From Amphiscolops sp. MND2022 (Eukaryota): a stretch of DNA of 64,000 bases. Shown here piece by piece: positions 6,001 through 64,000 of the stretch. The stretch is taken from the NCBI GenBank assembly GCA_964187785.1, contig OZ076409.1:79238001-79302000 (forward strand), read 5' to 3'. The position numbers were made by a program, and so were the translations under genes. Every line of letters starts with the position of its first letter. Within the stretch, counting starts at the first letter, position 1. The notes beneath the pieces are model-generated. The model searched no databases. It was not told where the DNA came from and worked only from the letters and a program-made list of their open reading frames with translations.

Positions 6001-6425
6001 GCATACATGAGTGCGAGGTTGCGCTTCAATTCGAAGCTGCGTACACCTTCGATAAATCTTTGCATGATTTTGTAGCGTCTTACCGCAACTTCCTCGTTGG
6101 GAAAACCTTGGCTGCGCAAACCTTCCAATGCATCCAGATATTGCATGTAATCCTCATCTGGAGACTGATTACGTGTGCGGAACTGTTGTTGTATTTGGAT
6201 CTTGTTAGACCCGGTTCCAAATCTTCGTGCTAGCAGCGCGAAGACTTTTTCATCAGTATCGCGTTCCGCTTCAGATTTGTTCGTGATGTAGTCCCGTGCC
6301 TCGTTTTCTAAGAATTCCACAATAGTCCATGCCTTGTCCAATGGAGTGTCTTTCGCATGGGCTTTCTGAAGATATCGCTTCATCAACATCAGCCAACCAT
6401 CTACTTTTCCGTCACGTGTGCCACG
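1..6425 (-). CDS. pol: Gag(CA/NC)-Pol polyprotein of element A, open to window edge
   Basis: Manual translation, all in the frame of the 587-aa ORF: zinc knuckle CFNCGDPSHFVADC (~5730-5770), protease MIDTGSG (~4890-4905), RT MPFGL and MAYIDD (3411-3431), RNase H VLDTDAS, integrase HDESGH..CLTC, VQFDH, QSDN, LVERQN. Absent from the ORF track, consistent with no stop before position 1. Confidence 0.93.
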
Positions 6426-8153: not shown

Positions 8154-8380
8154 TTCGCTTGCTTGATTTCTTGCGTTTCTATTGAGCAAAACTTTTCTCT
8201 GGTCCTTCGCTCACTCCTTCCCCTCAACAAATGAGATCGAAGTCAACTTAAATTGGAAGTTGTGGTGTCACTTCCTCAAGAGTTTTAACTAAACTATTTT
8301 ACTATTAAGTTTCTGAGCTTGTAGCTTGTGCCTGCCCTCTAGGTTCTAAGTCAAGATTAGCTGGCTTTTACAAACTTCAG

Positions 8381-24936: not shown

Positions 24937-27900
24937 TTAGGATTTAGAGGTACCGGGAGCGTTTACATCACCAGACTCAGTGGCCTCAGATCCGCTAGCG
25001 ACCTTGAAACAAACTTTCTTGCCCTTATTGGGAGACTGTTTACGTTGCTTCCTCCCTTCTTTGGATGAAGAATTTGAAGCGCACTCAGCGTCAGGTGGGA
25101 CACTGCTGCCCAAAGCCTTGTAGACAGCAATCAAAGTTTTGTGAATGTTGGCCCTGTTGAAACTATCTACATGAGACCAGGGGTCCCCTGAGACATTCCC
25201 GCTACAAAACCGAAGCTCCAGATCTTTGAAAGTACCCAAAGAAGCTTCTGTAGTACACACTGACACTGCACTAGCAACATTAGCGAGGTAAGACTGTGCG
25301 GGCATGATGACTTCGAACAGCCGACTTCGGGGTTCACTACAATCAACTCCGGGGAATTTGACAGCTGGGAGCTCTTGCAACTTAGTTGTAAGGCACAAAC
25401 AACTCAATTGGAAGATGTGGAACAAATGTTTACGCATCTTCAGCCCAGGCATTTCTATCATGGTGGCTACCATGTCAGTAAAGACCTCAGGGGTATCTTT
25501 GGCTCCGGAATTCAACTGGCGGAAGTACTCTAAAAAGTCAATGTACTCATCGCGGACATCAGCCTCCGGGGAATTTTCCAACCATCCTCGCAGACTGAAG
25601 GATCGATACAATGCTGAAAAGCAATAGGTGGCTTGATCAAGAGGAAGACACAAGAGGGCCATTGGGTAGAAACAACCCAAACCTCTGACAATACCTGCAT
25701 TCAGACTGATATCCGACAAGAAGACTTTCAGAAGGTAGACGAGATAATTGCGAGCTTTGGTAGCGAAATCGTCCCGGATGGCTTCAACTGCAATTTCTGT
25801 CTCCTCAGGTGTCAGCTGTTTTTCACTATGAATCTTCTTGACACGAGCGAGACAAGCCCCATCAAGATTCTCTTTCAGCTTTAAGCGAGTCAGGAAATCT
25901 CGGTTGGACAGTTGTCGCCAGTTCTGTCCTTGCATGTCGTCTAGGGCTTTCCAGTCTAAAATCTCTGGCACATGTCTAGGAAGTAGTGCCCGTGCTGCCA
26001 GCTTTCTGATGAAGGTGTGGAACTCGCGGAAGGTATAGAAGCCACTGTCCCTTCGTTGTGCGAATTGACTCTCGAAGCTCTTGGTATCTGAAATACAAAA
26101 TGCTCAATTGTCCTGGAGGGTACATACAACACCTGTGAACCCTCTATGACAAATTTCTACTTGTGGATGCCTAACTCTGCCTACCGATGAAAAATTGAGA
26201 CAATTCGGCCCAAAGACTGTACGAAGAGAACCCAATACTAACAATCACGGACTATCCGAGCGAAGAATTCCAGTTTGATAGTGTAGAAATCGTCGGCTAC
26301 GATTTCCCACTCAAGACTTTGTGGCTTGCTCTTCACTCCCTGATTCATTTGAGGTGGCGCAATCTTTGTCAGGTATTTGTGAACGGACTTCCAGTTAGCA
26401 ATCAGTTCGGAGCATATCGTTGGTACTGCAGCAATATCCAAATGGCAAGTTGTCATAGCCTACAAACAACATGAAAATTAGAATCAACCTATAACTGGAC
26501 CTACAGGCGGTGAGACATTGACCTTACCTTGACAAATTCCGGCATTAAGGCAGCCCAAGGTTGTCCACCGCAGCCATCCAAGAAGGTGATCAGAAACTTC
26601 AACTGGGAGAAGAAACTGATGGATCCAAACACGCTGCCCCAACGTTCATGCATCATGCTCGGCAAGGACAGAGCATCAAATCTGAAGGGATATTCAATCC
26701 CCTTCTGGAAGAAACAGGAACGCTCAAGAAGCGGGATCAACTCTGCTGGACACCCAGACACACTCACAATTTGTGGCTGTGCAGATATTGCAGACAAGAG
26801 TCGAGAGAGGGCTAGCAAGAAGCCCGCAGCAGGCTCTGAGGCAGTTCGATAGCGCAGCAGCCGGACAACATTGAGGGACTCGCCTTTCCAGAAACGGATC
26901 GACACGAAGCTATAAGTACCTTGCGTCTCGAATTCCAAGGAGTACTGGCCTGTGGCATTGACCTGATACGCGATGTCAGAGATGCCACAGAGGAAGATGT
27001 GATGGAAGATCGTCTGAAACAAATTAGCATGGATGAAAATATACCCCGTATAATAGTCTGGAAAGACCTCGAGGTTGAAAATAGTTGATACTTACTGTCA
27101 ATGTTGTGGAGCCCCAATTATAAGGGGAGAACAGACTCTGGTGGTTGGTCACAGTTCCAATTTGTGACCACAGTGACTCGAGGACGTGCAGATCTCCGCA
27201 GCGAGGAGCAAAGAGGGGGACCAAAGAGATCTGTACACACAGTCTGATTTCCTCTTGCCCAGCAATGGAACCCAAACCAGCCATGTGGTCCTCGTAGAAC
27301 GGATAACTGCATCCCATCTCAACTAAAGGGGCCTGCATGAAGAAGGGTTTCTCCCTCTCTAGTTCTAAGGGAGTAAGGATTTGGCCTTTCTTTCCCCTGA
27401 CCTCATGGACGATTCGCCCAGTGACACTGTCCTTTTTCTTCAAATTCTCATATCTCCAGCGCTGATCCTTACGAAAGTGGGACTCACACTGGAAATGTCG
27501 GGTAATCTCTCGGGCGCCTTTTGAGAAAATTGACACATTGGCCTTACAAATCTGACAATAAAACTTATGTTTATTGTGCTCAGGATCGAGCGGCCCAGTG
27601 ACAAAGGTCCGAGTCCATTGAATTCCTTTGAAATATGCCTCCTTCATTATTTTGCCACTTCGTCCTGGAACCCGACGACGCTTGCGTGGTGGACTGGAGG
27701 CGGAAGCTTGATCAGCAGTCAGGGTAGCCAACGGCTCATAGTCCGTGGAACAGAATCCTGGACTGGGGACTTGGTGGCTAATAGTGGGATCAGTAGTGCA
27801 GGGAGAATCTTGGCCAGGAGGACTTGGGGGAGGCACGATACTCAATTCCTTGCCGGTTCTCTGCGAGTTGATGACAAACTCATCTTCTGAACTGAGGGCT

Positions 27901-28871
27901 CCACTGCTGTACCCCTCGGTACCAATGTCACTGTCCTGACCTTCTAAACCAGGGCTATCGGGCTTCTTTCGGAAGCACTTGATGCGTTGTTTGGCAGGAC
28001 CCTGATGGGTACTTTGGGAACGACCCACACGAATTGCCTCCTCTAAGATGTTCTTCATTTGATGAAAACAAGAAGTGAGAGTCTCAGTGGACACAGCACG
28101 CAAAATAGAGTGCACCTGCCCCTGGTTGAAGGCTACTGTCGCATGGCCCACTGGAAGGATACTCGGATTAGTCTCCGTGAAATGCTGATTGATGAGAGTA
28201 CGCGCAGATGCAGACAAAGGCCGTGTGGGACTAAGGAGTTTTGGGGACGTTACATCTGGCAACCCTGCAGAGGAGGTCAGTCCAGCCTCTTTAGGAACTT
28301 CTGACCCGGTGGCGCTCAAATCTTCCATGGCGATTAGGAAAGGGGATTCTTTAAGAGTTTCTGCTCCTGAACTGTCCTGCAATTCTTCGACGTCGCTGGT
28401 ATCAGTTTGAAAATAATCCACCTTGGTAGCGGAAATACCTGCCTCGCTGTGGACGTCAGTCATCGGATCGGCATATTCTTCAGCAGACCCTTTATTGCTG
28501 GTCTCACCCGTGACCTGTAGAATAGGGTCCGACTCAGAGACCTTCTCAGCAACAGTTGGGAGCGACTTGTTTACGATGGCAGATGTAGTAGGAGGCAGGA
28601 AGGAAATGCCGAGTCCACTGCCCTGGCAACCGAGAGTTTGCAGCTGGCGTTCGATATATGCAGAGATACTTTCGTCAGTGGATGGACTGGGCGTTGGGAC
28701 GGTCGTAGCCGGATTATCGCCTGGCAGCTCAATGTGTTCGGACTCAACGTCCCCGTGACCTGAGATGGCCTGACTAGCTGTTGCCTTTTCATGGCTTTGC
28801 GAGACCTCTTCTTCGATTTGCAGTTCTGTGGTAGTAGCAAGGACAGCTTCACTTTGCTCTTCTGACGACAT
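24937..28871 (-). CDS. Antisense 4-coding-exon accessory gene of element B, ~1209 aa, zinc finger plus hAT-transposase-like body
   Basis: Exons (minus) 28871-27096, 27013-26528, 26459-26243, 26087-24937. GT-AG introns of 82, 68 and 155 nt (phases 0, 0, 1), with CTAAT branch points in the first two, join four ORFs into one frame. Motif CQICKANVSIFSKGAREITRHFQCESH. Probable 5'UTR intron 29082-28874; AATAAA on minus at 24753-24758 and 24725-24730. Confidence 0.88.
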
Positions 28872-30154
28872 GTCTAAATAGAAAGAGATAAACTCAGGCG
28901 GATAACTTCCTGAAAAAGAGTCCATTACCGCGTTTAAAAATCTTCCGGAAGTAGATATTTTGAACTCGAGTGAATGCTTGAGTTATGGGACAGGAAGTAC
29001 GTGAATGAAACGAGAGCCCTGATCAAGCCTCAGATTAATTCATTATCAAGATTAGAAGTGAAAATCCTAAATTGCTACTCACCTGACTGATTCTGGTAGA
29101 AGTGTGTCCTGTGTGCAAAACTGCTGATGGCAAGTTGACTGGCTGTCTTAGGATTTGGAGACAGATGGAATTGTCAGCGGAAGCGTCGGTGAATCTGTTT
29201 AATGTCTGTGCAATAGTTGCCGCTTGGGGGGAGCAAATTCTTCTTCGGAAGAAGGCGAGAATGGTGAATATGGCAGGAATTGCCGAAAGGGACTCAGTGT
29301 CGATGGTCCTGGGACGACCCAAGAAATCCACAAAAGACGTAAAGGAGAGAGATTACAAATGGAAACTTCAAACAAATACAAAGAAAATACTACTCAAAGA
29401 CTAAAGACTAAAGATGGTTAAATACTGGACGATAATACAAGAAGAGTAATTCGAAGGAATTTGAAAGTAAAGAATTAAAAGGTGAATTGGCAATGTGACA
29501 AGATGTCAAAATTGGAGTTCGTGGCTGTACAATTTGGTGTCGAATTTAGTTATTTACAATTCGTATTATTATGTGGATGGAGTCTGCCAGCAATATCTAC
29601 ATTCATTCATTTATTTCGAAACTTTGTTATTTTACAAATTATTTCATGATTTTACCATGATTTTATTCATTTTCAAGGTCATTTATATTATTCTTTATAT
29701 GGATCTACGGCCTTGGGGAGCCATTTTTATTCGGAGAGGGTTATGCTGCAATCCTATTGGTTGATCAAAACTGCTGATAGACGGCGTGGCCGTCTGCCAT
29801 ATCTTCATCCTCTTGAAACCCTTAAGTGCTAGATGAGTGTTAATAAACACTCAAAGTGACGCTCTTAATATGGAAGTGTTGATAGAGTTAATGTAAGTCA
29901 ACAAAGCCTCGGTCGGCATTTTCAAAGAAGACTGAGCGGCTAGTTAATAGACTCTAGAAAGAAGGAATTTTGTTATTGAAAATTTAGTCAGCAAGGAAGG
30001 GAGAAACCCCGGGAAACTGAAACGAAAACTCCCGCAAGTCGACAGAAGGGGAAACCGCCATTGTTTCAGTTTCACTTTTGAAAATCAGCAGCTTCTCAAA
30101 ACTCAAGATTTAAAACCTTTCAGTCAATTGTCCAAGATAGCTAAAAAACTGATC

Positions 30155-30994
30155 ATGGATAAATTCTTGTCAAGTCACTTCGACTGTGAGTCTCCTCAAT
30201 ATTACCCCGAGGACTTTCAGGGGGCAGCGCCCGGAGACGGAATAATATACATATCATCGGACGACGACATGGAATGTGTCAGCAGCGCATCTGTTGACGA
30301 CCTAGAAAGCCTGTCTGACGACGATGAGATGGCCCTCCTGGCTCAATGTGTGGAGAGACAGATGGAGCTTCCATCGACATCAGAAGCAATTTCCATCCCT
30401 TCCTCTGCCAATAAGCAGGAAGTGACACGCGCAGCGACTCCCAGACTAGCGTACGTCCCTGGGCCTATGTTCGATGCTGGCTATTTTGACTTGGGAATGG
30501 GCAGAGGGCCGATTGCGAGAGACCCGCGACTAAGGAATGACCACCCAATCAATTTGTGTAGCCAGCTAATCCCTATGGTCGACACGCCTATGTCTCCCCC
30601 AGCCGTCGACAAATATCCGTCAGGCGACTGGAGAATAGCAGCGGAAGCCACTACTAGTAGCAAACAAGAACATGCCAACGGAATACACTTCAGGGGACCA
30701 AGTGGCGCAGATAACCCCTACATCTCAGGATGTACAGACTGCCTCGTCTGCGGGAAATCAGTTGAACAGATTCAAGACGAGGCAGTCATCGACTACCTTC
30801 ATAAAACAACCATCCAAGGAGAATCGGCCCTTCAATTCAACGCAAGAAGGCTAGCCTTCCTAGAAGGAATGAAGGTGGGATGTTTTATGCTTATTCCAGG
30901 GGGAGTGTCCCAGGCGTCCGCCTGTGATGGAAATCTCTATTCAATTAGTCACAACTACAAGAAGGCGCAGCCCAACACCCTCCCACTGAATTAA
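30155..30994 (+). CDS. Sense accessory ORF of element B (279 aa), unknown function, overlaps PPT and 3' LTR
   Basis: Intact ORF; IIYISSDDD SIM-like motif, RDPRL, CTDCLVC; stop lies 89 nt inside the 3' LTR. Confidence 0.8.
   Translation: MDKFLSSHFDCESPQYYPEDFQGAAPGDGIIYISSDDDMECVSSASVDDLESLSDDDEMALLAQCVERQMELPSTSEAISIPSSANKQEVTRAATPRLAYVPGPMFDAGYFDLGMGRGPIARDPRLRNDHPINLCSQLIPMVDTPMSPPAVDKYPSGDWRIAAEATTSSKQEHANGIHFRGPSGADNPYISGCTDCLVCGKSVEQIQDEAVIDYLHKTTIQGESALQFNARRLAFLEGMKVGCFMLIPGGVSQASACDGNLYSISHNYKKAQPNTLPLN
30896..30905 (+). promoter_or_regulatory. Polypurine tract of element B
   Basis: ccAGGGGGAG directly before TGTCCC of the 3' LTR. Confidence 0.8.
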
Positions 30995-32434
30995 GTCTTA
31001 CAAGCAAAACTATATTTGTTGCCTTAAAAGTCATGTAAAATCTTATATTTTATTTTATACGATTTATACTAAGTAATCACAAGTAAAATTGTAGTACAGG
31101 CGCTAATAATATGTATGGGAGTTAATTGGACACCAAGGCGTACAGGTAAAGGAAACGCGTTCAAATGTTTCCTCGCCTGTCGCCTTGGTCCGCGAGTCCG
31201 ATTAACTCGTCAGCCAATCACAGTGCAGTATTATTTATCTTTATTTGCTGCTATACTATATCGGTAGATTAAAGGACTGGATGGCTATATGCCGCCAGTC
31301 AACAAAGCGGTAGTCCGCTCTAGTACATTGGACACTGAGTCCACTTTTGAATTAAAAGCGCTGTATAATTATTGGTACTGACTACATGATCTCTAGTGTT
31401 TTGATTATTTATGAAATGTACTATTAGCCCCTAAGGGACTCATGAACGATATTAGATATGTATTGTGGGTGCAATTCATATAATTCATGCAATAAGCGTT
31501 GCGTTGAAAAACATGTACAGTGTTCTGTTTTATATTGTTGCTTGTCCTTATGGACCCACAGGCTTCCCGCCTACTCTAGCGGTCGGAAGGCCCTTTGATG
31601 TGTATAACGTTACGATGATGCTAGTTACTATTTATAGCGTTTGGCTATATTTAGAAAGTCCTTATGGCTATTTTTAGAATATGATCATCATTTTATTGAG
31701 TGTCATGTAGATTCAAATATATATAACCGGGACTGGTGGTCCCGGGGACAGAATTATCCTGATGATACTTTGATACGTTACTGTTGCGTTACTGTTGCGA
31801 ATTGTTTATTAAAACTACCCGTTCATTTTCACTTTGCAAGCCCAAGATATTAATTTAAATTCTTGCCTCTTGCAATAATCTCTTATGCCTTCTACTAGAC
31901 GTCAAAAGGCCAAAGCTAGGAGATCTAGAGAAATGGACATGCTGTCCGACTACGATAACCTAGACGTGATGTTGGGAAATGAAAATAATAATCCCATTGA
32001 AAGAGAACTAGCCGAAGCGATAGATCAGTCGTCGGCCCACGGGGACGATGATACAAACGTGTACCATGAAAATGAGTTTAGAGATTACTTACATGAAAAT
32101 GAACCTTTGAGGCAAAATGAAGTCAGGCAATCCTTTGAGGCCTTTTCAAGTGAGTTTAATCTTAGATTGTCTCAAGAAATGGAATCTATGGTGTCAATAA
32201 TGCATAGCCAAATAAATAGGGCTATAACAACAGCTATAGCTGAAAGAGTTATTCCAGAAATCCAGAATATCGCGAACTCGATGTCTTCTATGGGACACAG
32301 GGACACTGAGGCCAGTTCGTCCCCAAATAGTCAGGAGAACAGGGAAAGCGCACCCGGGCCTAAAATAAAAATTGCAAAGAAAGATTCAAGATCTGTAGGC
32401 GACTTGAGAGATACCATGAGTCATGGTTCTTACA
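30906..32434 (+). repeat. 3' LTR of element B (1529 bp)
   Basis: Near-identical to 16944-18471; followed by TSD ACGGG. Confidence 0.97.
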
Positions 32435-44028: not shown

Positions 44029-44223
44029 GTGCCGACTTTCAGTTGTTCTTGGCTTGTTTGACGTGGGAACTTGTTATTCCAATCCTTTGAATGAAGTTAG
44101 GCATTTAAACAATTATATTGTTGTAGCTCCAGAAACAGCAATGCAGTTCATAAAAGAAGTAAAATATGTTTCTTTATTCTTGTCATTGAAAATCCACAGG
44201 TGTCACAGCTGATGAAGTTTTTC

Positions 44224-44662
44224 TGTATTGTATTGTATTGTATTGTATTGTATTGTATTGTATTGTATTGTATTGTATTGTATTGTATTGTAATGTTCTG
44301 TATTGTATTGTATTGTATTGTATTGTATTGTATTGTATTGTATTGTATTGTATTGTATTGTATTGTATTGTATTGTATTGTTTTGTATTGTATTGTATTG
44401 TATTGTATTGTATTGTATTGTATTGTATTGTATTGTATTGTATTGTATTGTATTGTATTGTATTGTATTGTATTGTATTGTATTGTATTGTATTGTATTG
44501 TATTGTATTGTATTGTATTGTATTGTATTGTATTGTATTGTATTGTATTGTATTGTATTGTATTGTATTGAATTGTATTGTATTGTATTGTATTGTATTG
44601 CCTTGCATTTTATTGTATTGTATTGTATTGTATTGTATTGTATTGTATTGTATTGTATTGTG
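44224..44662. repeat. (TATTG)n pentanucleotide microsatellite, ~440 bp
   Basis: Directly visible; few interruptions. Confidence 0.99.
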
Positions 44663-45455
44663 TTGTTTTGCATTGGTTTTGAAAATGCTTTAACTGTTTT
44701 CGAAGTCAGTTTGAAAATCTCGGAATTTTCTCTTTCACTGATGGCTGAAACGAAATCTTCACCGGTCAGTCTTCGATGACTTAGTGTTCAAGTTTTTAGC
44801 CGTACATACAGGTGTTCGTAAAGTTAAAACTCACTTCAAATAATTCTAAACACGAGGAAAATAACGTCTTCATTTCAGAATTCCTCCACACGCTTGAAAC
44901 TACAACTTGTATCTTGTATTAAATTCTCTTTAGCACTGGACATCTTTCTCCCAAAAATGCCCTCTCATTTTAACAAACTCGAATTTTTGAGCTGAATTTG
45001 TTCTTACCCTATTTGAGAATGCCGTAAAGTTTTGTAAGCACATGAATAAAATGCAGGCTAAGTTTTGATAAAACATAGAAAAATCAGGGACTTTGCATGG
45101 AAAATTTTGTAAAACTTTCCTGCATCTTGGAAAATCTTGAAAAACTTCCCTGCATTTTGTAGAAACTTGGAAAAATGTCCACTAAGCCTTGTTGTCACAG
45201 GCTACCACCTGCGACGGTATATTCTATCAAATTCCAGCAGGAGACAACGCACCTAACCCGCACCTGGTGTACTGCCTATTTGAAGCATTAAGACCTTGGA
45301 AACAGCTGGATAAAGACGATACAATCTACTAAGGAGCTACTACGAAGTTCGGCCATAGGAGACCTTAAGTCGACTTGCCTACAATAAACTTTGACGCTTA
45401 GTTAATTAGTTACATGTATATAGATTATTTTTGATACGATTGCTATTAGTGTTTG

Positions 45456-48400
45456 TGTCGTAACTCTGTAGAGTATTATCCGTGATCTCGACAAGAGTTA
45501 CAATGAATAAAATGCGTTTTAAGCAGACTTCGCGGCCTATTCGGCTTCGTGATTCCTGTGTAGCCCCACGGACTGAAGGTCCACTTTTGTGCTAAATCCC
45601 GCTTTGAGCGCTCCCAGGCTAACGTGTGTTTGCGGAATGATTTTCTGATCACATGCAGGATATATTTCCCTCATATTCTGAGTATATGATGTTTTCCAGC
45701 GTTCTTTTACTAATTTTACAATATAAGAGTTCATCATTGTTTAAAATTCCTTTATTTGAATTTAAGCTTTCTTGGCGCCCACCGGACAGTAGGTCCACTT
45801 GCGAACCATTTGCTAGAGTTTTGAGAGTTTGTTCATTCAACAACTTCATCGTCATTCGAGTTTCTACGTTGTTGAGGCTCATTGGACTGCAAGTCCATTT
45901 CTACATTTTTTTCAACCAAGTTGTTTTCAAACTCATTCGTTCCGTAGTTTCTTAAGATGAGGTTCGTATTTTCTCAATCTGACATAAGGTCACTTGTCCC
46001 TAATATTCTGTTCTATAGTCGAAGGCATTATAAAAAGAAATTGTTTTCAACAGTGTATTTGGTCTTCAACAAAACAAAATAAATAAAGATTCACAAATTA
46101 TCAAATGAAGAGTGAAAACAGTGGTTGTAACAATACAACGAACGGTTGATACAAAGGTATTTTCCTGTAGTCCCGTGGACTCAGCGTCCGTCTATATATA
46201 TACTCTACAGTGCATGACACTCAATTTCCTGATAGTCATCGTGATAAAAATAGCATTAAAACGGCATCATTGTTACGTCATGTCTAAATAGAGTTAAAAA
46301 TAGCATCAGTATGAACATCAAAAGAAAGAGCTAGAAACGACAGCAAGGGAGAAAGGCTTGTTACTTTAGACTAACAGTTCGGAATTGTTTACTCTACTTG
46401 AAGTGAATGAGACATCAAAAAGCGAACTAAAACAGCATAGTGGACCGACGGTCTGTTTGACTACAGCAGTAAGACTAGCAGCGCTGTGATTGGTCGGTAA
46501 TTGATAATAAATAATTCAAATATAGCATCTACATCTTGAAAGCCAGATATTTATAACCAATGTTTGCTGTCGCCACGAAAAAAGACAACCAAAAGCATAA
46601 AAGAAGTATCTACAACGTAAAACTTCGATGTATGTAATCAAAGTTTGCTGTCGCCGCGTGGACCTAAGGTCCAATTAGACAGGTAAATATTGCGGGGGGC
46701 AGCCTGCGACAGTCCCCTTGGTTCAAATTGAAACCGTCCACTCTGCAACCAAGTCTTGGTCATTATTAAATCTCCAATCGCACACGACGAGATGAGTGTT
46801 TAACATCAATATCTCAGCATCTTGAAGTGTGTAATTAGGACTGCAGGTGCGCTTGACATTATCGATCCTCAGGAATAACTAGGTAAAATGGTGAACTATG
46901 ATTTCTTGGAAAAAAATATTTGTCGAAAGATGCCAATCTCACATGAGAACAAACTGTGTATTTAGTTGGCCGGACTTTGGGACGCAATATCTACGTAATG
47001 TCAAAATAATTCTAATTACAGTTTTCTACTTAGTAACAATCATGTAAAGCCTTTGTGGTTCACTTAGATGCTGGTGAAAAAACTGATCCTTGCGAATCAC
47101 TTGAGGTGTTTCAATAACAACTTGAAGTTTGTTGAATTGCAGTGAAAGTGTTTACCAACACAAAATCTCAATCATGATTTTTCACGAAAGACCGTCAGTC
47201 CGCATGGCTACACAAGAGGAATTGGCCAATCACGTTCCGTTGATAGATGAATGAATAAATCTTGTAAACGAAGGAAGGAATATGGCTAAATTCGATGATA
47301 TATGATAGTAGAATGCTGATAAATTGTAAGAAAATGAAATGGAAGAAAGATTCTGTGCATATCGCTGGCAGGCTCCATGACACAAGAGAAGAATTATAAT
47401 TAGGTTGAAGAGAAGTAGATTGTATTAGCAGGTAGGTGAGTCTAGTCAACAGTCCCGGTAGTCCATTTGAAAGTAATGCTACTCAGTAGTATATGTTATT
47501 TTTGAATTTTACCCCACTTTTCAATTGTTTGTATGTAACCTTCACATTTCTTGATTCATTCCCAAGCGCCTAAACTAAATTGGGACCTTACGTCCATTGG
47601 GCGTCAGCCTTTAACAGAGATTGCTCAACTTTCTCAATTCAACTTGTTCACGTGATCTTTCGTCAAGCGATGAGTCCTCTTCTACACTATGAGCTGCTCC
47701 ATTTAAACAGGCAAATAACCATTTTTTCCCTTTTTGATTTATACCATCATATCCCAGTGTCAGGCTTTGTCCAATTTAAGACGTACTTTCATCTGGGCGA
47801 AAACAGCTGGTAATACTTTTTTTCACTCGCCTGGCTTTGCACCCAATGCGACCTCCAGTCTAACAGACGTCAGTTTGATTTTTTCCTAGAGCAATTACAG
47901 GTATTACTTGTTCCACCACCAGATAGTACTTTGAAAGACTGTTTGAACCAGTTTTCTTCGTCTGTTTGAACCAAGTTTTTGAATTCCGCTCTTCCGTCTT
48001 GGAAATAACGTCAGGTTGGTTCTTTAAGGTGTCAATTTCGAGCTTGATCAGGGCTTCCCATTGACTAATTTACTTCCTCCATCGTAAAATGTTTCACCTA
48101 AGTGTGAACATTGTGTTAGAACTTGCTTTCGAAAGTCTTTAAACTGCGGTATCATGGAATGTTTTTCAGGAATAGACCCGCGTGATTTTGTTTCTATCCT
48201 TTCAGGAAAAGAAATAAACGGCCAACCAACTTCTGAGATGAAAGAACAAATTGATATTTGCGTTCTGGTAACAGTCGCTTCTGTGAGCATTTCCGATACT
48301 GAGCTGAACTATTGTTATGTGGACGTTACGTCCGTTGAGCCTCAGCCCTTGTTTGGTACTTCTTTGACCACTGGTTGTAGTGGACCCGCAGAGGGTGGTG

Positions 48401-51074
48401 GGAGTGGTCTAACTTAGAATATATATTTTTTGATTGACATCAACTTGCATGATTGTGAAAACAAGTTTCAGTTGTATCTATTTGGTTGAAGCCACTGAAA
48501 TTCTAAGTACTATCAAATTGAAGGAAGGATCAAGGTAATTTTGTCTGATGCGGAAGTATTGAGAGTTGCAAATGAGTTGCTGATACTTCGGGCACGACAG
48601 TATCTCTCCCTCCTGACGATTTTTGAATAACTAGGCGAAAGTCCGAGGGGAAGTCCGAGGGTGTGTCTTCGCTAGGATCTGAATCGAAAATTTCCTCTAA
48701 CCCAGTGGACAGAAGGTCCGTCGGTATAAATTTGATCCTACTGTCTATCGTCATAGGAACTAGGTCTTGTGTATCGTGGCGTGTTAATGATGTAATGACA
48801 AACATGACTGCCTCTGTTGCAATCGCAGTGACTCCTGGTCCAGTTTTGTGGATTGCATTTTCTGATTTGTCCTGGAGCAGTGAACAAGAGGTATCACATC
48901 AAGACCGTTTTCACCGATGCGTAGATGCTATGGTAAGGTCGATGAAATTTACATACTGCTCTCGTATTAATGACGCAAATGCCAGAATAAATGAAACTTG
49001 TGAACATGAAGAAACACTCTCGCTACTTAGACGTAAGGTCAACAAAACTCATTTGATAAATGTGATGGTGATATGAAGAAAACTGTTTGTGCATGAACGT
49101 AAAATGGACGTAAGACAAATTAGGTCAGGAAAAGGAGAAAAGGCTCGAAACGGGCGTCATTTCAGAGTGAAAGGCAACGTTTTCAATTGTAAATGTTTCA
49201 ATGTTCAATTTAGTCACTGAGCCCGGAACGCAAATCTTGCAGCACTAAGTGGATTTATCATGTGTTTGTGACATAAGTGCAGAATTCCTTTACTAATAAA
49301 ATTCAGCTCCCGTAACACACTATTTTGCACGCAATATAACATCACTGAACCGCTAAAAGATGGGCTCAACTTTCGCTGGTGAGTTTGAATCGAATTATTT
49401 TACTGTAGCCCGCTGGACGTATGGTCCAAAGATTTACTCCGCGCCTGTTATATTTGCAGCTGCCGTCGAAGCCACATAAGGTTCAACTAATTTAACAAAC
49501 TTGAGGATTGACGCAATTAAGCGCAAACACAATGTTGACGAATGCGTCCAATATTTCGAATCTAGACTTTTCAGCATTGATAGCAAACGGTATATTACTA
49601 CATTCTTGATTGTTTGCTTGACGTTGCGGTCAAAGTTTAGACGAAGTTGATTAATGAAATAATAGTTCTTGAAATTCAACCAAATTAGGTTTGGGAAACT
49701 GCTGGTTAAGATAAATTCGAAATTTTCAAATTTTCGCTGGGGCCATAGGGGATTGTGTGGGCCGTTCGGTCAGGAACTCAGGAACCATATGAGGGTAAGT
49801 TGGGCTCCTGTCACCATGTCGTAACTCTGTAGAGTATTATCCGTGATCTCGACAAGAGTTACAAAGAATAAAATGCGTTTTAAGCAGACTTCGCGGCCTA
49901 TTCGGCTTCGGGATTCCTGTGTAGCCCCACGGACTGAAGGTCCACTTTTGTGCTAAATCCCGCTTTGAGCGCTCCCAGGCTAACGTGTGTTTGCGGAATG
50001 ATTTTCTGATCACATGCAGGATACATTTCCCTCATATTCTGAGTCTATGAAGTTTTCCAGCGTTCTTTCACTAATTTATACATTATAAGAGTTCATCATT
50101 GTTTAAAATTCCTTTATTTGAATTTAAGTTTTCTTGGCGCCCACCGGACAGTAGGTCCACATGCGAACCATTTGCTAGAGTTTTGAGAGTTTGTTCATTC
50201 AACAACTTCATCGTCATTCGAGTTTCTACGTTGTTGAGGCTCATTGGACTGCAAGTCCATTTCTACATTTTTTCAACCAAATTGTTTTCAAACTCATTTG
50301 TTCCGTAGTTTCTTAAGATGACATTCGTATTTTCTCAATCTGACATAAGGTCACTTGTCCCTAAATTTCTGTTCTATAGTTGAAGGCATTATAAAAAAAT
50401 TGTCTTCAACAGTGTATTTGGTCTTCAACAAAACAAAATAAATAAAGATTCACAAATTATCGAATGAAGAGTGAGAACAGTGGTTGTAACAATACAACGA
50501 ACGGTTGATACAAAAGTATTTTCCTGTAGTCCCGTGGACTCAGCGTCCGTCTATATATATACTCTACAGTGCATGACACTCAATTTCCTGATAGTCATCG
50601 TGATAAAAATAGCATTAAAACGGCATCATTGTTACGTCATGTCTAAATAGAGTTAAAAATAGCATCAGTATGAACATCAAAAGAAAGAGCTAGAAACGAC
50701 AGCAAGGGAGAAAGGCTTGTTACTTTAGACTAACAGTTCGGAATTGTTTACTCTACTTGAAGTGAATGAGACATCAAAAAGCGAACTAAAACAGCATAGT
50801 GGACCGACGGTCTGTTTGACTACAGCAGTAAGACTAGCAGCGCTGTGATTGGTCGGTAATTGATAATAAATAATTCAAATATAGCATCTACATCTTGAAA
50901 GCCAGGTATTTATAACCAATGTTTGCTGTCGCCACGTGGACCGAAGGTCCAACCAAAAGCATAAAAGAAGTATCTACAACGTAAAACTTCGATGTATGTA
51001 ATCAAAGTTTGCTGTCGCCGCGTGGACCGAAGGTCCAATTAGACAGGTAAATATCGCGGGTGCAGCCTGTGACA
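45456..51074 (-). mobile_element. Non-autonomous LTR retrotransposon D (B-related family)
   Basis: LTRs 45456-46711 and 49817-51074 (~1.26 kb, roughly 97% identical by eye), TSD GTTTG (45451-45455, 51075-51079), PBS TGGTGACAGGAGC (49816 down), PPT-like CAAGGGGA. Internal 3.1 kb has no intact ORF. Confidence 0.93.
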
Positions 51075-51289
51075 GTTTGTAATAACTGTTTGCAATTAGA
51101 AGGTTACTGTGATAATGTAAAGGTAATCAATGTGATGCAATTGGGAAGTGTTATTGCATTTTCACGTTGTTTGAATTGAACCGTACAAATAAGCACAATA
51201 CAGGAACGAGTTCTAATGATCGTTTCCTGTAGCTAGCTGTACACGCAGTCCAATAGTATAACGCCCAATCACAGCGCAGTATTGATATA

Positions 51290-53290: not shown

Positions 53291-53366
53291 TCTGAGACAC
53301 AGAAACTGGAAAATTCAAGATGCTAATTAATTAGCATCTTGAATTTTCCAGTTTCTGTGTCTCAGA
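53291..53366. repeat. Perfect 76-bp palindrome with no spacer
   Basis: TCTGAGACACAGAAACTGGAAAATTCAAGATGCTAATT followed by its exact reverse complement. Confidence 0.97.
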
Positions 53367-56095: not shown

Positions 56096-56416
56096 ACACA
56101 GTGGAGAGATTTGGTATTACAGTTAGTCTAATTGTCTTCTAGTTGGCTCAGGTTAACTAGAAATCTATTTCGGATGAGAAACGAAAAGTAAGTAGATTTA
56201 GACAACTGTTGTAATAAGGCGGGATGAAGTTTGTGACTGTACCAAATTTCAACGCAAGATGGTGTCATGCCCGCCAAGCATGAAGAAATGAAATAAACTC
56301 TAAAACATTAATCCTTACACCAAACTCCCTAAAATACAGATCATCATGTAAATACATTGCAGTAATTTATTAGCTAAACATTACAGTTGGCTATATGACA
56401 ACTGAAACTAGCAGTC

Positions 56417-58761
56417 TGTTACGACTATTGTTCGGTGTTGTTTTAGAACTAGTCGCAGTTTGTGTTTTGACTGGGGTGGACGTTCTTGCTACGGAGATGT
56501 TTTCTTGGTCAGAATCAGAATCTTGCAAGTTCGGATTAACTGAGCGTTTCTTGCTCGCAGGTGCTATTAATTTGAGCATTTCCTTTTGGTTTTCAGCTAA
56601 TATTTTTGCTAGATCAGTCATTATCTCTTTTCTCAGACTTGTTTTCATTTCCTCCAGATTTTCAAGCTCAAGTCTAGGGTTTTTACTAGAGCTAGGTATC
56701 AGGTTCTCGGTGGAGTTATTTTCAGTTAGAGAAGCTTCAAAATCTCCCGACGCTAACTCGGCTATAGCTTTTCTCTTCTGGCTCCTTGTCGTCATTTTCA
56801 AAGTTGAGATATCAGAGTCTTTGGCAAGAATTAAATTCTTCAAAGAAATTTTGAGTTTTCGTAATTTCAACGAGCAACAAAATTTTGAAACAAATCCAAG
56901 TTCAACTAAAAATACATGTCCTCTCTACCTATTTATACCTTCTTAGCATCATTTGTTCCTCACCTAAAAATTCCTAGGAATCTTAAAAGTCGGGTTTGTT
57001 CAACAAGATTCGCCGATGATTCAAATTATTTCAGTCTGGCGTCATAAATTCAGGTATCGAAGTTCCTAGTTGCGTCAACATTCCGTGAGACTTTGTTGAA
57101 ATCATTTTTGTTCAGATAATCCATTTCCTGTTTGATCTTCAAAACCGCGGTAAAATAGAAGTCTAATTAACATTTTCATCGGCGTAAGCACGCCGGCGTG
57201 AACTATTAGTCAATATCCAACTCGAGGAGTTGGAATTTTGAGGAAAAAGATGATGTTCAAAAATGGTGACGGAAACGATACGTCGCTGAAAATTCGCCGT
57301 TGAGAATATTTGAAACGAGAAACAAATGATGCTGATGGGCATTAAGGCAGACTGACTTCAACAAACATGAAATCCAACATAATAATTGACTTGGGTTACG
57401 GGAATACTCCGTATAATGTCCCAAATACTAACTAACTGCAACAGCACAAGAATAAAAATAAAACAATGTAACAAAGGCATTTCAAAACTGGTACAAATCC
57501 GAAATTGCTTTCGGGATCATTCATTCATCATCATATTTAGAGTTAGGTTATAAAATTAGCATCAAACAGACATCAGTATAATTTACGTATACACTTCGTG
57601 ACTTGGAATTAGGTCCTGAGTAATACAGCTTTTATCATACAGAAAACATGACGTAAGTTTACGAGGACTAGTGCAAAATTCATCACCATCAATTGATCAT
57701 AAACTGCAAAGAAAGCATTGGAATGAATTACGGGTACACTCCGTAATATAGTATTTAAGAAGTATAGCAATGGCATAATAAATTAGTATAGAATTCAGGA
57801 CATTACAACTTTGTTCTTCTCATAATCCTTCCTTACAGAGCAGCTGTTTTCCTCTAAAACCTAATCAAGAAATTCCTTAGCTAATAATGAACCAGGAAAA
57901 ATTCTCTTAAACTTTCATTCGTTCCATTTTTTCCTAACTATATGTTCTCAGAACACTCCGTAAATGCTTCGTATGTATTAAGATTGCTTATAGTAGAGAG
58001 GTGGACTACAATTTTACAATTCGCCACGTAACTGCTACGTACGTATAAAGATTGCTTATAGCTAGTAGGTCAGAGTGGACAGAAAGCGAGCGGAACGCGT
58101 AGGCGAATTCATTCTTTCTCTCTTATTCTGATTGGCGTTGCTAGGGGCAACCGAATTCAATACCGCTCGCGCTAGCTAAGAATAATCCTGCCGAGGAGGT
58201 GACGTTATTAGTCCGCGAAAGTAGAATATCTAATTTTAGCTCAGTAGAGTGACGCCGTCATTACGTTGTAAATCCTCTCTTAAGTCACTTGATTGCGCCT
58301 TAAGTGGGTATTGACAACTACTTTATCACAGAAAACACCAAAACAACTCTGTCTTTTATGTATTTTTCCTTTTAGATCGTATGGATTCCGTTGGGATTGC
58401 GGGATTTTAAATGTGTTTTATTTTAGTGTGGAACTGAAGAAAAATCCCTGTTGTTAAATGTTATTTTGGTATTTAGATCAGTATGGCGAACTTCAGAAGA
58501 TTAAACCGGATATGGAAAATCTATTGAGCGTGAAATCTTTTAACCGGAAGTTTTAGCTAAAATTCATTTCCCAAAATATTCCGTGACGCATACGTTAGAT
58601 TCTTATTCTGAAAAATTATCTACGAAATAATATTAGCTGCACTGTAAGTAGAATTATATTAGTTTAGTTAGTATTTCAATGGTACTTGCAGTATCCTCTT
58701 CCTCTGCCTCTTCCTAGGGCGAAACACCATTCACACCCACGACCGGGAGCGGGTCGTGACA
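56417..58761 (-). repeat. 3' LTR of element E (~2345 bp)
   Basis: Starts TGTCACGAC (58761) after PPT GAGGAGAGGGG, ends GTCGTAACA (56417); 8/9 terminal inverted repeat. Contains gag-like start MTTRSQKRKAIAEL. Partner LTR not in window. Confidence 0.8.
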
Positions 58762-59539
58762 GGGCCCCTCTCCTCGCTAAATACGTTGGTAGGCCGTGGC
58801 AATGGGGAATTTCTTTTGTGACTAGTACTGAGGGTCGGCTTAGGTAGTTTCTCATCGGGTGGGGGCCGCGACCTCTCCCCGCAGTCATACGGGCAATTCT
58901 CTTTTCTTCTTCTTCAAGTTCCCTCACCATGTTTTCGAAATGTTCCCGTTCCTCTTGGGTGATTTCAGGTGGCTTGATTGGTTCATTCAGATCATTCAAG
59001 CTTGAGTCTGCTAATTGCGTGAGGGGGGTATTTACTTTCCTGCAAGGCTTGAAAGGAGGCTGACTTGGCTTCTTTGCTACGTTATTTCCTCGTCCTAGGG
59101 ACCTGAAAAATTGGCGGTCTTCTAAGTCAAGATCGTAGAGGGCCTCTAAGTCGTCTGCGGAGGGTCCGTTTCCTCCCTGGGCCACGATAGTCCCTCGTTT
59201 CCTTTCATTACCCAGTGTGGGGAAATTTTCTTTTTCTTTACTTTGAGGGGGAAGAGTAGGAGTCTCGGGTTCTTCATAGTAGTCATCAGAGTCGACGTCT
59301 TCGGGTAGGGCAAAAGATACTCTTGTTAGCCTTTTCTTTTTCCTGGGTGTCGGTGTTTCTTTCGCTGGCGATTCTGGGCTTGACTCTAATTCGGCGTCGC
59401 TTCCACGGTAAACTTCCGTGGAAGAGTCACTGAGGTCAAGTCTTCCGACCATATTTACCGGTACAGTCTTCAATGGCGTGCTGTGTCTCATATTTTCTTC
59501 ATCTGATGAGATGTCGATGACTAGTGAATATCCTGCCAT
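58676..59539 (-). CDS. Sense accessory ORF of element E (287 aa), overlaps PPT and 3' LTR
   Basis: Intact ATG ORF; VIDISSDEE SIM-like motif, PRKKKRLTRVSF, GRGRG repeats, CEWC..CKYH; stop 86 nt inside the LTR. Confidence 0.82.
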   Translation of the reverse strand: MAGYSLVIDISSDEENMRHSTPLKTVPVNMVGRLDLSDSSTEVYRGSDAELESSPESPAKETPTPRKKKRLTRVSFALPEDVDSDDYYEEPETPTLPPQSKEKENFPTLGNERKRGTIVAQGGNGPSADDLEALYDLDLEDRQFFRSLGRGNNVAKKPSQPPFKPCRKVNTPLTQLADSSLNDLNEPIKPPEITQEEREHFENMVRELEEEEKRIARMTAGRGRGPHPMRNYLSRPSVLVTKEIPHCHGLPTYLARRGALSRPAPGRGCEWCFALGRGRGRGYCKYH

Positions 59540-60182
59540 TTTTTAAAGCGGTAGAAATTGCGAAGTTTCTTTAATTTATGCAGGCGAGATTGTTTATTTA
59601 GATTAGTGAAGCGCTGGTCAAGCTTTGTGAAAATTGAACGACAAATGAACGTTTCACTTTGCTTTCTTTTGTAATTTCTATCGAATTCTTATTGGTCGAT
59701 TTCTGTTTTCGTTCCGGTTCGTCCCGAGTTAGGTGAAACGAACTCTTTCCTGCTGTGCTGTGATTGGTTTAAATCCTTAAGGAAAACTTCTAATTTTAGC
59801 TCTCGTCCTCTTTTAGATTAATGGCGTAATGACATCTTTGATTTTCATTGTCGAATTACGTCCGTATTTCATGATCTCTTGATGTTTTTCCATGATTTCC
59901 TTTAGTAATTCTCGATGAATGTCTATCCACCAGTAGGGGTTTTGGAAACGTTTTGTTTCGTCAATGCTTATGATAAGCTTGAGATATGAAGCTATGAGTG
60001 GTTCCTTTTCCTTTTGAGTGAGAATGATATTAAGTTCTTTTAATTAGATGCGTTCACGTAACGCGTTTTCGTCTTTTCCATTTTTCTTTTTAGGATTTCC
60101 GTGATAGTTCCGTGTAGTTTCTGTTTTATATTTCTCTTTTCTTTTAGATTTCCTTGACAATTCGTCTTTCTTCGTGTCTGGT

Positions 60183-63100
60183 ATGATGGATCAAGAAGAG
60201 GTAGAACGTGGCACTGCTGTAACTTCTGGTCACATAAGTGGAAATGAGACTGGCTACAATTATTCCGAAGATGACATAGTGTCTACGGAGAATGTAGTTG
60301 GATTGTCTACTTCAGGTTGGTAAAATCTTTCTGACTTCCATGGGAATCCGGACCTTGGTATTTTTGGTGATCAGCCTTTTTGGTCCTACCCGTAACTCTG
60401 ACGCGTCTGAATCCAGATCTTGATTTTCAGTAGCTCAACCTGGTTTTCCTTCCACTTCTCTTGGATTGGTTGTGGGAAATCCCTCTCCCGTTTTGCCACC
60501 AGCTAGTAGTCTCCTGTCAGTTGCAACTCCTCCTGGCTTTAGGGCTGCGCTTGCCCAGGCAGCTACGTCGGCCGTGCCCGCTGAATTTCCTCCTACTGAG
60601 GATATTGTTACGACTTGCTCTCGTAGCCAACTGGATGCTGTGTCTCAAGGAGGTGAGACTGATTCCCCCTCCGAGGAAGAAACAAGTTAGTAGGTTTTGT
60701 CGTTGTCGTATTAATGCGTTGAAGAAGGTGGCTAGTGATGGGAGTATTGGGTTTGTGTTTTAGGTCCTTCAGTTCGTCAAAGGCGGTCACAGGTCGTGAG
60801 CTTTTCGACACCGCCTAAACGAGCTAAAACGGGCGATACTCCTCCTCCTTCACCATTGACTCCTGCCGAAGGCTGGATTAGTTAGTGTATTTTGTATTAT
60901 CACACTGTTGCACGGGTATTGTTGTGGGGTTCGAATGTCTTGACGAGTTAAAATAGCGTGATTTTTGAAATCATCTACTTTGTAGGGTTGTTTTGTAGTG
61001 TCATTGTGTTGTAGGTAACGACGAGTTGACGTTGAGTCCGCAGGGTCTGAAGTTGATGGGTCAGCAGATTGTGGAAGAAGTTGACACGCGGACTGCTCGG
61101 GCAATTCGAAATAGTGAGTATTCGTTTGTACTATATGTATAGGTTGGTTGCAGGGTGGGCTTTTAGGGTATGGTTTTCCACGATGTCATTCCGTTTGTCG
61201 TGTGTTGCAGGTTTCAGTGAGTTGAAAGCGAGGATGGACGCGCAAACTGGCAGTCGCACAAAAGCCAAAAAGTACAGTCGCAAGAACATGTTGAGCAAAC
61301 GCATGTTATCGTTGCATCCCGCATACCGTGATTTCGTGAGCGGATCAAAGACGGGGGCCGGGACTCACTTTCATTGCCTGGTCTGTAAACGTGATGTGGC
61401 CATGGGATCGCAGGGGTCTCGAGAGTTTGCTCGGCATTTCCAGTCTGACAGTCACTGGGACAAGGATGTCGTATACCGGGTTCATATGGGCATGCCCGTG
61501 TTGAATAAACTGATGGAGCCCTTGCAGCTAAGTGAAGAGCAGCTTGCTGAGTATCGTGCGAAGCCTTTCGTTGAGCTGGGTACTGGGTATCCGTTTCCTG
61601 AGGATCTCCTGCCGAAACACTCCCGCGTGGAATCAAAAATTCCCTTCATGACCTTTGTGGGCTGTCTCTGTGATTTGTTGCGTTGTGGAGGCGATTTTGC
61701 TCTGGTGCGGCAACTCTGGAGTCACTTTTGTGTGTCACTGGACAAGCAGAAGGCTGATTTCACTTTGCATTGGAGTCGTTCGGAATCCGTGGTAAGTTGT
61801 GTGTTTTGTGTGTTTGTCTTCCTGTTCATCGTTTGGAGTTTGAGAGTTCATAATTTCCCGGTTTTATCTGTTGTTTCCAATAGTGTTCTTCTTTTGGAGT
61901 TATTGTGCTCTTCTTCTTCTCTCTTTTTCCTTTCTTTTTTTTCTCTTTTTTTTCTCTTTTTTTTCCAGACGTAGGTATAACGAATCATTGTGGCGTTTGT
62001 ATTTTAGTCGTTTCTCTGTCAGGGGCTTGCTCCTCAAGTTCTCCGTCTAATGGTCAATGGGATAACGACGTTCAAGGACTATAGTGTTCAGTTCGAGAAA
62101 GATCTTTTCGTGGAGCGTTGCTACGTCCTATTTTGGGAAAGTAATCAGTTGAAGAAAGTGTGTGTGGGGAGTGAGCCTATTGATCAGCCCGTTCCTGATG
62201 CAGAGTTGGTACCCTTGTCCCGCGTGATCCATGTTCTGGAGTCAAAGCATTTGCCGTTGATTGTTCGTGGTGCCAGTCCCAGTTTGCTGAGTGTGATGGG
62301 CAGTAATCGCTCGGATGGTCGCCGTTTTGTTGTGTACCACGAGTTCAATGAGGAGACCTTCATACAGTTCCTGCGTCAAGCCCATCAGGACATATTTGGG
62401 ATGGTAGATATTATTACCATCGTGGAGTATTTGATTCAACGGCTCCGGAATGCTGTTTACGAGGAGTGGACGGAGGACAAGGTTGTGCTGTGCAGATGTC
62501 TTCGAAGAGGCTCCGTTGAGTTCTATGAGTATCGCGAGTTATTGACGGACTTGATTAGTCTTTGGCCTTCAATTCGTCCGTACATCCGTTGCACTGTCAA
62601 TCCCGAAGCACGTGGCAAATCAGCTACTGTTAGTATTTTTATTGGTTGCTTTGTCGTTTGCGTCACGTGTTGTTTGTAGCTATAGTCGGTTTGATTGTGT
62701 TTTTGTTCTTTTCCAGATGTTGGGGACAGACTGGCATCTGATTGCTGATAACATGATCGTGCAGCGCTTGGGTCTGTTGCGATTTGTTCTCGACACTTGT
62801 AAGTATGATGCTGATTGGTGTTGTTCTCAATTGATGCTTGTATCTATCCAGTATAATTGTGTCGTTTGTTATTGTCTGATTGCGTTTGTTGTTCGGTTGT
62901 AGTGTTCGGTATTATCTTTGTAAACCCTTGTTGGTGTTTTAGTTCAAATTAATTTTGAGAAGATGCGTCAGCAACGAAAAGATTACGGCTTCCATGGCTA
63001 CAGTGAATTGTGTCATTTTGTGTATCGTCTACTGCTGCGGACTCGGGAGATTGAGTCATTGCCTGGTATCCATGATTGGGAGGCGTACATGGACGTGAAG

Positions 63101-64000
63101 AAAATGTCCGAATACCCTGCTGCATCAATGGAGACTTTCTTGGACAATTGTGACTTCGGTCGTGAGTTGCTCGCTGGAAAAACGTCTGAGGCTCAGGAGT
63201 TCCGCAGATATTGTCGTGATTTCCTGGATCAGCTGGTCACTGTCATTTTGAACAGTCCTAGTGTGTCATCTGTTGTGGCGAAAGGCCTCTGCAGTTTCAG
63301 TCCTGAGATTCTGTTGGAGGGAGATGCCCATTCCGTGTTTACCTTGTTTGCGGATCTTACTGGAGTATTGGTTTCCTGTGGAATTTTATCGTCCGATGAT
63401 TCGAACGCTGCTATTGCTCAATTCAGCAGTTACGTGGTGGAGAAAAGGAGGTGGCACGAAGGGTCTGACGTGAATGCCAGCGAGATCCCGGATGTGGTAC
63501 GCTATTTGCTGCAGGACTTTAGCTTTGTCGCTCGTCCGGAAGTGTGCCGAGTTCTGAAGTTATGCTGTCTTGTAGTTGGGGTCCCCGCAGTGCAGTATCC
63601 TCCCGTATCATTTGATCTGAGCGGCTGTGCTTTGAGTAAAGCTGTCTTCCATGATTGCGTACGCTTAGTGCAATCGTACGTTTTGTGTGCGGGGTATGAG
63701 CATCAGGTGTTCTTTACTGATGTGACTTTGGATGCGGTTCGAGATGCCATCGTTACTGCAGGGATCTTTTATATTACTCCCGGCTATGATCTCTGGAAGA
63801 ATTACTGTGATCCTGGTGTGGACTCATTCATCGCCAACTATCGCAAATTGTATTCTACATTTTTGCTGGAACGCCGCAAATCTTCAGAGAGGTATTATGT
63901 GGAGTGCAATAAAGCGAACAGACGTGCTCGTGGCAGTGTCGGGGCTTCTGGATCAGAGACCGGCAGTAATGTGAGCGGCGCCTCGAAGAAGAGTAAGAGC
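60183..64000 (+). CDS. Antisense 8-exon accessory gene of element E (>=982 aa), homolog of 24937-28871
   Basis: Exons 60183-60315, 60431-60685, 60764-60880, 61015-61113, 61211-61791, 62008-62628, 62717-62798, 62943->64000. All GT-AG with matching phases (1,1,1,1,0,0,1) and no stops. Motif CLVCKRDVAMGSQGSREFARHFQSDSH. Confidence 0.88.

Follow-up and report, generated by a model that had tools for sequence, protein, structure and literature searches.

An intron-containing antisense gene in Ty3/Gypsy-type retrotransposons of Amphiscolops sp. and its probable origin from a hAT transposase

A spliced gene that is carried in antisense orientation by LTR retrotransposons raises the questions from where it was acquired and what it does for the elements carrying it. 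The passages of PMC7264820 that deal with antisense accessory ORFs of LTR retrotransposons describe their origin and function as mostly unknown, and the origin of most plant antisense ORFs as unknown. The locus addressed here lies in a window of 64,000 nt, the whole stretch of DNA that was analyzed (OZ076409.1:79238001-79302000), within the 1.07-Gb assembly of Amphiscolops sp. MND2022. Stretches to the right of the window are designated L011 onwards, and positions above 64000 are extended window coordinates. The original prediction, made from the letters of the window, comprised an eight-exon gene in an element designated E and its homologue in a second element, B; the peptides quoted for both genes were all found in place.

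The antisense gene and the element that carries it

The gene of E is predicted on the (+) strand with eight exons, all introns being GT-AG, and encodes 1,037 aa with zero internal stops. Exon 1 (60183..60315) is separated by intron 1 (60316..60430) from exon 2 (60431..60685), which is of low complexity and is followed by exon 3 (60764..60880), whose acceptor is less well kept in subfamilies, and exon 4 (61015..61113). A C-x2-C...H-x5-H zinc finger is encoded by exon 5 (61211..61791), a predicted RNase H-like fold by exon 6 (62008..62628) and a helical domain by exon 8 (62943-64168), which runs 168 nt past the window to a stop at L011:168. Exon 7 (62717..62798) measures 82 nt, the same length as in clades G and H described below. 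In subfamilies at ~50-75% nucleotide identity, the splice sites are in register and indels are concentrated in the introns. A look-up of RNA runs listed none for the gene, a result that carries no information about its expression.

The homologous gene of element B (24937..28925, (-) strand) encodes 1,227 aa in the exons 28925-27096, 27013-26528, 26459-26243 and 26087-24937. The homology of the two genes is borne out by the spliced proteins, which align with 21% identity over 786 columns (E=7e-39). Single-exon comparisons gave E=8e-14 for the last exon and 3e-16 for the finger exon; for the middle exon alone, the result was non-significant (E=0.11). As predicted, two introns are equivalent, one in phase 0 after HWSRSESV in E and NWGSTTLT in B, the other in phase 1 before the last exon. 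Introns 1-4 of E are located in an N-terminal region without alignment to B.

Element E is a 16.5-kb Ty3/Gypsy-type retrotransposon on the (-) strand, reaching from 56417 to extended position 72932. Its 3′ LTR (56417..58761, (-) strand; 2,346 bp, TG...CA) lies inside the window and its 5′ LTR (L011:6591-8932) to the right of it. The LTRs, 2,346 bp in length, are 99.4% identical, with 8 mismatches and 3 gaps, and the element carries the target site duplication (TSD) CAGTC on either flank (56412..56416, (+) strand, and after the 5′ LTR at L011:8933). The 3′ LTR is adjoined by a polypurine tract (58762..58777, (-) strand) and the 5′ LTR by a primer-binding site starting with TGG, to which no primer tRNA could be assigned. 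Gag, protease, reverse transcriptase (RT), RNase H and integrase are encoded in Gypsy order at L011:317-7098 on the (-) strand, convergent to the antisense gene; gag also matches DUF1759, and in this copy gag-pol is broken into several ORFs. E thus combines the LTR pair with TG...CA ends and TSD, the gag-pol order, and the primer-binding site and polypurine tract of a Ty3/Gypsy element. The convergent pol and gag as well as the 5′ LTR with its CAGTC duplication, which had been expected to the right of the window, are present there.

The gag frame of E, B and F begins inside the LTR and passes through the primer-binding site, so that ~100-180 codons are duplicated in the 3′ LTR, which in E contains a copy of the gag N-terminus (gag-in-LTR segments: window 56391-56924 and 31879-32434, L011:5824-7098 and L011:9605-10000). 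After the protease, at L011:3875-4500 (-), a weak resemblance to the dUTPase fold was observed (PF04797, E=0.03).

E has a second accessory ORF of 288 codons, ORF X (58676..59542, (-) strand), which is in sense orientation and terminates inside the 3′ LTR. Its head-to-head arrangement with the antisense gene suggests a bidirectional internal promoter. Other versions are located at window 29951-30994 (+), L016:2899-3636 (-) and L019:4849-5817 (-). Those of B, G and H have a common C-terminal C-x2-C domain (E 1e-33 to 2e-6), to which ORF X of E gave no match, and no Pfam family was found for ORF X at cut-off. An unrelated Gypsy-like element with a 2,141-codon open frame, whose RT is 29% identical to that of E, occupies window 3-8210 (-) and has no match to the antisense gene.

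Copies, descent and intron differences

By tblastn, six copies of the gene, belonging to five clades (E, B, F, G and H), were found in the 304 kb around the window, all antisense to pol. Genome-wide queries with finger exons returned 5,849-7,218 candidates per query, which are not copy numbers. Among the 150 matches listed for the E finger, 61 are at least 95% identical, and the gene is therefore not a single-copy host locus. Of 54 loci selected solely for the gene, 50 have a convergent RT or integrase within 10 kb (E<=1e-10); in one of the remaining four the integrase match is weaker, and in the other three, all of clade F, none was found. Inside element H, an 8.9-kb tandem duplication (L018:4793 to L020:2649, 99.3% identical) was observed that includes the antisense gene.

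With a profile of the last exon (31 sequences), 1,368 clusters were matched at E<=0.001 among 1.84 billion representatives, and the 150 listed among these have single-exon size (<=443 aa). Three matches were compared with this genome: one is present at 100%, one reaches 39-40% at best, and for the third no match was found at E<=1e-110. As two of the three are without a close counterpart here, these sequences indicate that the gene is probably also present in one or more further genomes. A metagenome scan with the finger exon gave no relative, a phage collection searched with the RT gave no match, and a word-based homologue search with exon 8 gave none among longer proteins. Four matches were obtained in the word-based search with the finger alignment, and the three inspected are ORFs of the same family.

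The gene had been proposed to be an old, vertically inherited module under purifying selection. Its age is apparent from the 19% protein identity between E and B versus 79% for their RT. Between clades, identities are 13-22% for the gene (B-G 40-41%) and 64-82% for the RT (B-G 92-93%). Purifying selection is seen in dN/dS values of 0.04-0.09 in seven of the ten pairs with computable dS; of these seven, the two within the E family gave 0.04 and 0.08, and the five between subfamilies 0.05-0.09. The remaining values are 0.13, 0.18 and 0.33, the highest being based on only 15 changes, and 7 of all 17 pairs were saturated.

In trees of 17 copies, the groups E, B+G, H and F are obtained both for the gene, where long branches meet, and for the RT, for which a quick version of the protein tree was calculated; four near-identical rows were omitted. 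Within clades, the RTs of L049 and L053 are 99% identical versus 53% for the gene, those of L066 and L067 99% versus 72%, and those of B in the window and L095 99% versus 86%. The proposed co-divergence with the RT thus holds between clades but not within them: as the trees agree at the one level and disagree at the other, the gene follows its lineage but is swapped among close relatives. Judged from these comparisons, the antisense gene is reassorted within clades, and template switching between co-packaged relatives could bring about such swaps.

Gene models were made for the conserved region of 53 copies. In 43 of these, all splice sites coincide to the base with the projection, and 25 contain at most one stop. 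Intron lengths are freely variable. The exons after the finger exon measure 486, 135 and 82 nt in G and H, 621 and 82 nt in E, 486 and 217 nt in B, and 489 and 211 nt in F. Since 621 is the sum of 486 and 135, and 217 that of 135 and 82, E is without intron a and B without intron b, in both cases with base precision. The sister relationship of B and G (100/100) makes loss of intron b in B the parsimonious reading, and the presence of intron a in four of the five clades makes its loss in E likelier; the history of F is ambiguous, because the tree is rooted by midpoint only. The gain or loss of introns inside a retroelement, as originally proposed, is therefore base-precise for introns a and b, introns 1-4 of E lying outside the region alignable to B.

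The antisense orientation would shield the introns from splicing in the genomic RNA, so that they would survive reverse transcription, and their clean removal could be due to the RT of the element occasionally copying antisense mRNA that had been spliced. With its many dated copies, the family is a natural system for the study of precise intron loss beside a reverse transcriptase. In several B and F copies (L094:1660-4140, L067 and P0199), the intron that follows the finger exon is free of stops and in frame, so that open frames of 827 and ~450 codons result. By this sequence feature, an isoform retaining the intron is possible for these copies.

Relationship of the protein to hAT transposases

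The N-terminal finger is of the C2H2/BED type, with Cys and His invariant in 29 of 29 rows, and Pfam gave weak matches only (zf-BED 2/29, Spin-doc finger 1/29, ZN292-like 7/29). The AlphaFold model of exon 6 (pLDDT 70, pTM 0.48) has the strand order of RNase H. Using Foldseek, the hAT transposase Hermes was found at ranks 1-3 and 5-9, with a best E=7.5e-4 as the sole match <=0.001. VIA aligned residues 1-112 of this model to Hermes 154-265 (Z 5.1-5.3, rmsd 3.8, 100 aligned), with sugar kinases and Hsp70 above Hermes at Z 6-7 (best 7.1). For a separate model of exon 8 (pLDDT 68), Hermes is at rank 3 of 48,161 in VIA (Z 4.9, rmsd 7.7); the alignment of 168 residues on Hermes 365-609 is the longest among those listed and is colinear with that of exon 6. 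Foldseek gave nothing for the exon-8 model. In a viral structure library, generic RNase H-fold matches were obtained, and a hAT-domain protein at rank 8. A natural B-family frame (finger and core) was searched against the ESM Atlas, where, among named clusters only, hAT-type families were returned with scores of 0.82-0.87, i.e., below 0.9 and a lead only by the classes of the tool. The ten best family-bearing matches belong to a single family or clan; a query with just exon 8 yielded no lead to hAT. Four alignments were also searched against PDB sequences, where the best match (E 0.045) was discarded as chance.

On the basis of these models, the antisense protein is probably of hAT origin. The RNase H fold is common, and every sequence and profile test was negative, so that capture from the host, or descent from some other C2H2-finger protein with an RNase H fold, has to be considered; the protein would then serve an unrelated accessory role such as RNA binding or piRNA counter-defence. 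The hhalign comparisons to two hAT alignments were non-significant in five of five cases (E 0.074-0.59), although in one of them (E=0.11) exon 8 fell on the C-terminal region of hAT, in agreement with the order expected, and the full-length profile score was equalled by 6 of 30 block shuffles. PF05699 was matched by 0 of 98 members, and no Pfam family was found at cut-off for any exon. The family HMMs miss the genome's own hAT ORFs, and no similarity to the sampled hATs was detectable. Against a non-hAT protein stand the two separate models and the language-model search, all of which indicate hAT, and in the right order; we regard a non-hAT origin as improbable.

Catalysis by Hermes needs D180, D248 and E572, as stated in the relevant part of PMC2533014. 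The corresponding positions were placed here by motif register, not by residue-level superposition. The first holds Glu in 11, Gln in 7, Ala in 5, Arg in 3 and Met in 1 of 27 sequences and Asp in none, the second has zero acidic residues, and near the third there is no conserved acidic column. Given a hAT origin, the protein is very probably catalytically inactive. Like hAT proteins (Hermes; ZBED, FAM200 and DUF4371 types), it has a finger, probably followed by an RNase H core and a helical region in equal order; unlike them, it is without a conserved acidic triad or PF05699 and lies within LTR retrotransposons at the loci examined. The transposase-like fold might also belong to a DNA transposon that sits inside the retroelement and is still active, or the gene might be a neutral passenger. 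Both are very improbable and largely refuted: no inverted repeat of at least 9 bp was found between spacer and 3′ flank in E and thus no TIRs, the DDE residues are not conserved, dN/dS is low and the gene is tied to pol.

The probable identity as a dead hAT transposase was not part of the original prediction and provides an antisense accessory gene with a traceable likely origin in another transposon class. An ancestor of this Ty3/Gypsy lineage would have acquired, in antisense orientation, the gene of a hAT-type DNA transposase; its DDE site would then have decayed, with selection continuing to act on the zinc finger, the RNase H scaffold and the helical domain.

The arrangement is most like that of the plant Retand and Grande antisense ORFs. 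As described in portions of PMC11963269 and PMC7264820, Retand, Grande and RIRE2 likewise have a lineage-wide antisense ORF between pol and 3′ LTR, with a transposase-named domain, proposed DNA binding and nearby tandem repeats. Unlike the Retand-type TRP28 (PF04195) ORFs, the gene analyzed here has 3-7 predicted spliceosomal introns and no TRP28 match, and the word 'intron' is absent from the main texts of both papers. Giant Gypsy elements of the Burro type in planarians also have thousands of copies and accessory coding capacity, but according to the corresponding sections of PMC6431247, their extra domains are located in the polyprotein or an upstream ORF; the word 'antisense' is absent from that text. 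LTR retrotransposons with accessory genes are thus already known as a kind, and the antisense gene is a real and well-supported feature. In the literature searched on gene arrangement and anti-silencing, no account of this arrangement was found; most subscription journals and Repbase were outside the scope of this search, and an earlier description is possible.

Motif arrays, intron 1 and candidate functions

In clade H, 15 copies of the motif CCGCATA were counted over 4.4 kb of non-coding sequence versus 0.3 expected, the top count of any GC-containing 7-mer in shuffles being 8. The entire H element contains 20 copies (five per LTR, six in the spacer, four in intron c and none in gag-pol), and the clustering in spacer and intron c was found in 9/9 H loci. 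A bipartite form of the motif also occurs six times in 457 kb of non-H loci. In clade G, a palindromic GGAC-n-GTCC dyad is present 6 times, with shuffles giving 3 at most. No enrichment was seen in E, B and F (3 versus shuffle maxima of 4-5), and an unrelated LTR family reaches 6 versus 5; the link between motif and protein is for these reasons put forward as a hypothesis.

Two short LTR elements without a long ORF (window 45456-51076 and L015:6701 to L016:478) have the same primer-binding site and share sequence and motif arrays with G or H. They are probably non-autonomous relatives, a pattern expected for users of a trans-acting factor. As motif controls, both were rejected due to this relationship.

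The reading that we favor, at roughly 45%, is that the protein is a sequence-specific DNA-binding regulator of its own element. A nuclear protein binding to the non-coding motifs of its own clade would keep the element transcribed or unsilenced, and the candidate target motif in two clades makes this function directly testable. A known system for comparison is the anti-silencing protein VANC of the Arabidopsis VANDAL elements which, in the part of PMC5735166 concerned, is found at introns as well as at intergenic and terminal non-coding DNA and has as targets tandem repeats that differ between related elements. Both are accessory proteins encoded by transposable elements. VANDAL, however, is a DNA transposon, and the arrays found here are present in two of five clades. 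By analogy, the protein may work like VANC.

An antisense nuclear regulator in a retroelement, as proposed here, is also provided by HTLV-1 HBZ and other retroviral antisense genes. HBZ is a different kind of protein and is spliced.

A dead hAT protein could instead act at the cDNA or integration step, where it would bind LTR ends or integrase, assist nuclear import, or direct the integration, frequently to sites in other elements. Binding to transposon ends is a property of hAT transposases, motif arrays are present inside the H and G LTRs, and E itself is inserted within the 5′ LTR of the related element F. Plant antisense ORFs, for which a role in retrotransposition is suggested, are discussed together with nuclear import in the respective part of PMC7264820. 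The arrays, however, are also found in an intron and the internal spacer, distant from the cDNA ends, and a single nested insertion is a weak argument in so repeat-rich a region. We consider an action at this step unlikely.

The dead transposase scaffold would likewise suit a copy-number brake that represses its own or competing elements, or host hATs as a dominant-negative transposase. Many hAT copies are present in the genome (at least 150 matches over the Pfam cut-off), and convergent antisense transcription could silence by itself. Such a brake is hard to reconcile with the abundance and recent activity of the carrying clades, whose LTR pairs are 98.7-99.6% identical, and with the lack of detectable similarity to the sampled hATs, and appears quite improbable.

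Besides the protein, intron 1 of clade E may have a function of its own. Among seven divergent clade-E copies, its identity is 79-87%, while the remaining introns reach 20-56%, exon 7 54-87% and the seven other exons 42-75%. On either strand, the consensus fold of intron 1 scores better than column shuffles (1/100 and 0/100 reach the score), and on the plus strand the predicted stem closes over both splice sites. Covariation was found in 1 of 27 pairs on the plus strand and 2 of 22 on the minus strand. Folding of single sequences was no better than shuffles (z 0.89 and -0.15), and an Rfam search over 56300-64000 gave one match with E=4.9. A splicing switch or a packaging signal is possible.

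Combined with the favored regulator, these observations lead to a wider scenario, which taken as a whole is doubtful. The lineage would have taken a cut-and-paste transposase into its own service as a sequence-specific activator or anti-silencing protein, kept antisense to hold its introns and controlled in clade E by the structured intron 1. The protein would co-evolve with clade-specific arrays that are borrowed by non-coding LTR elements, and the system would be VANC-like, having arisen independently in retroelements.

Two further repeats were observed in the window, namely a ~55-bp palindrome centred near 53330 (53300-53360) and a long pentanucleotide satellite at 44100-44700.
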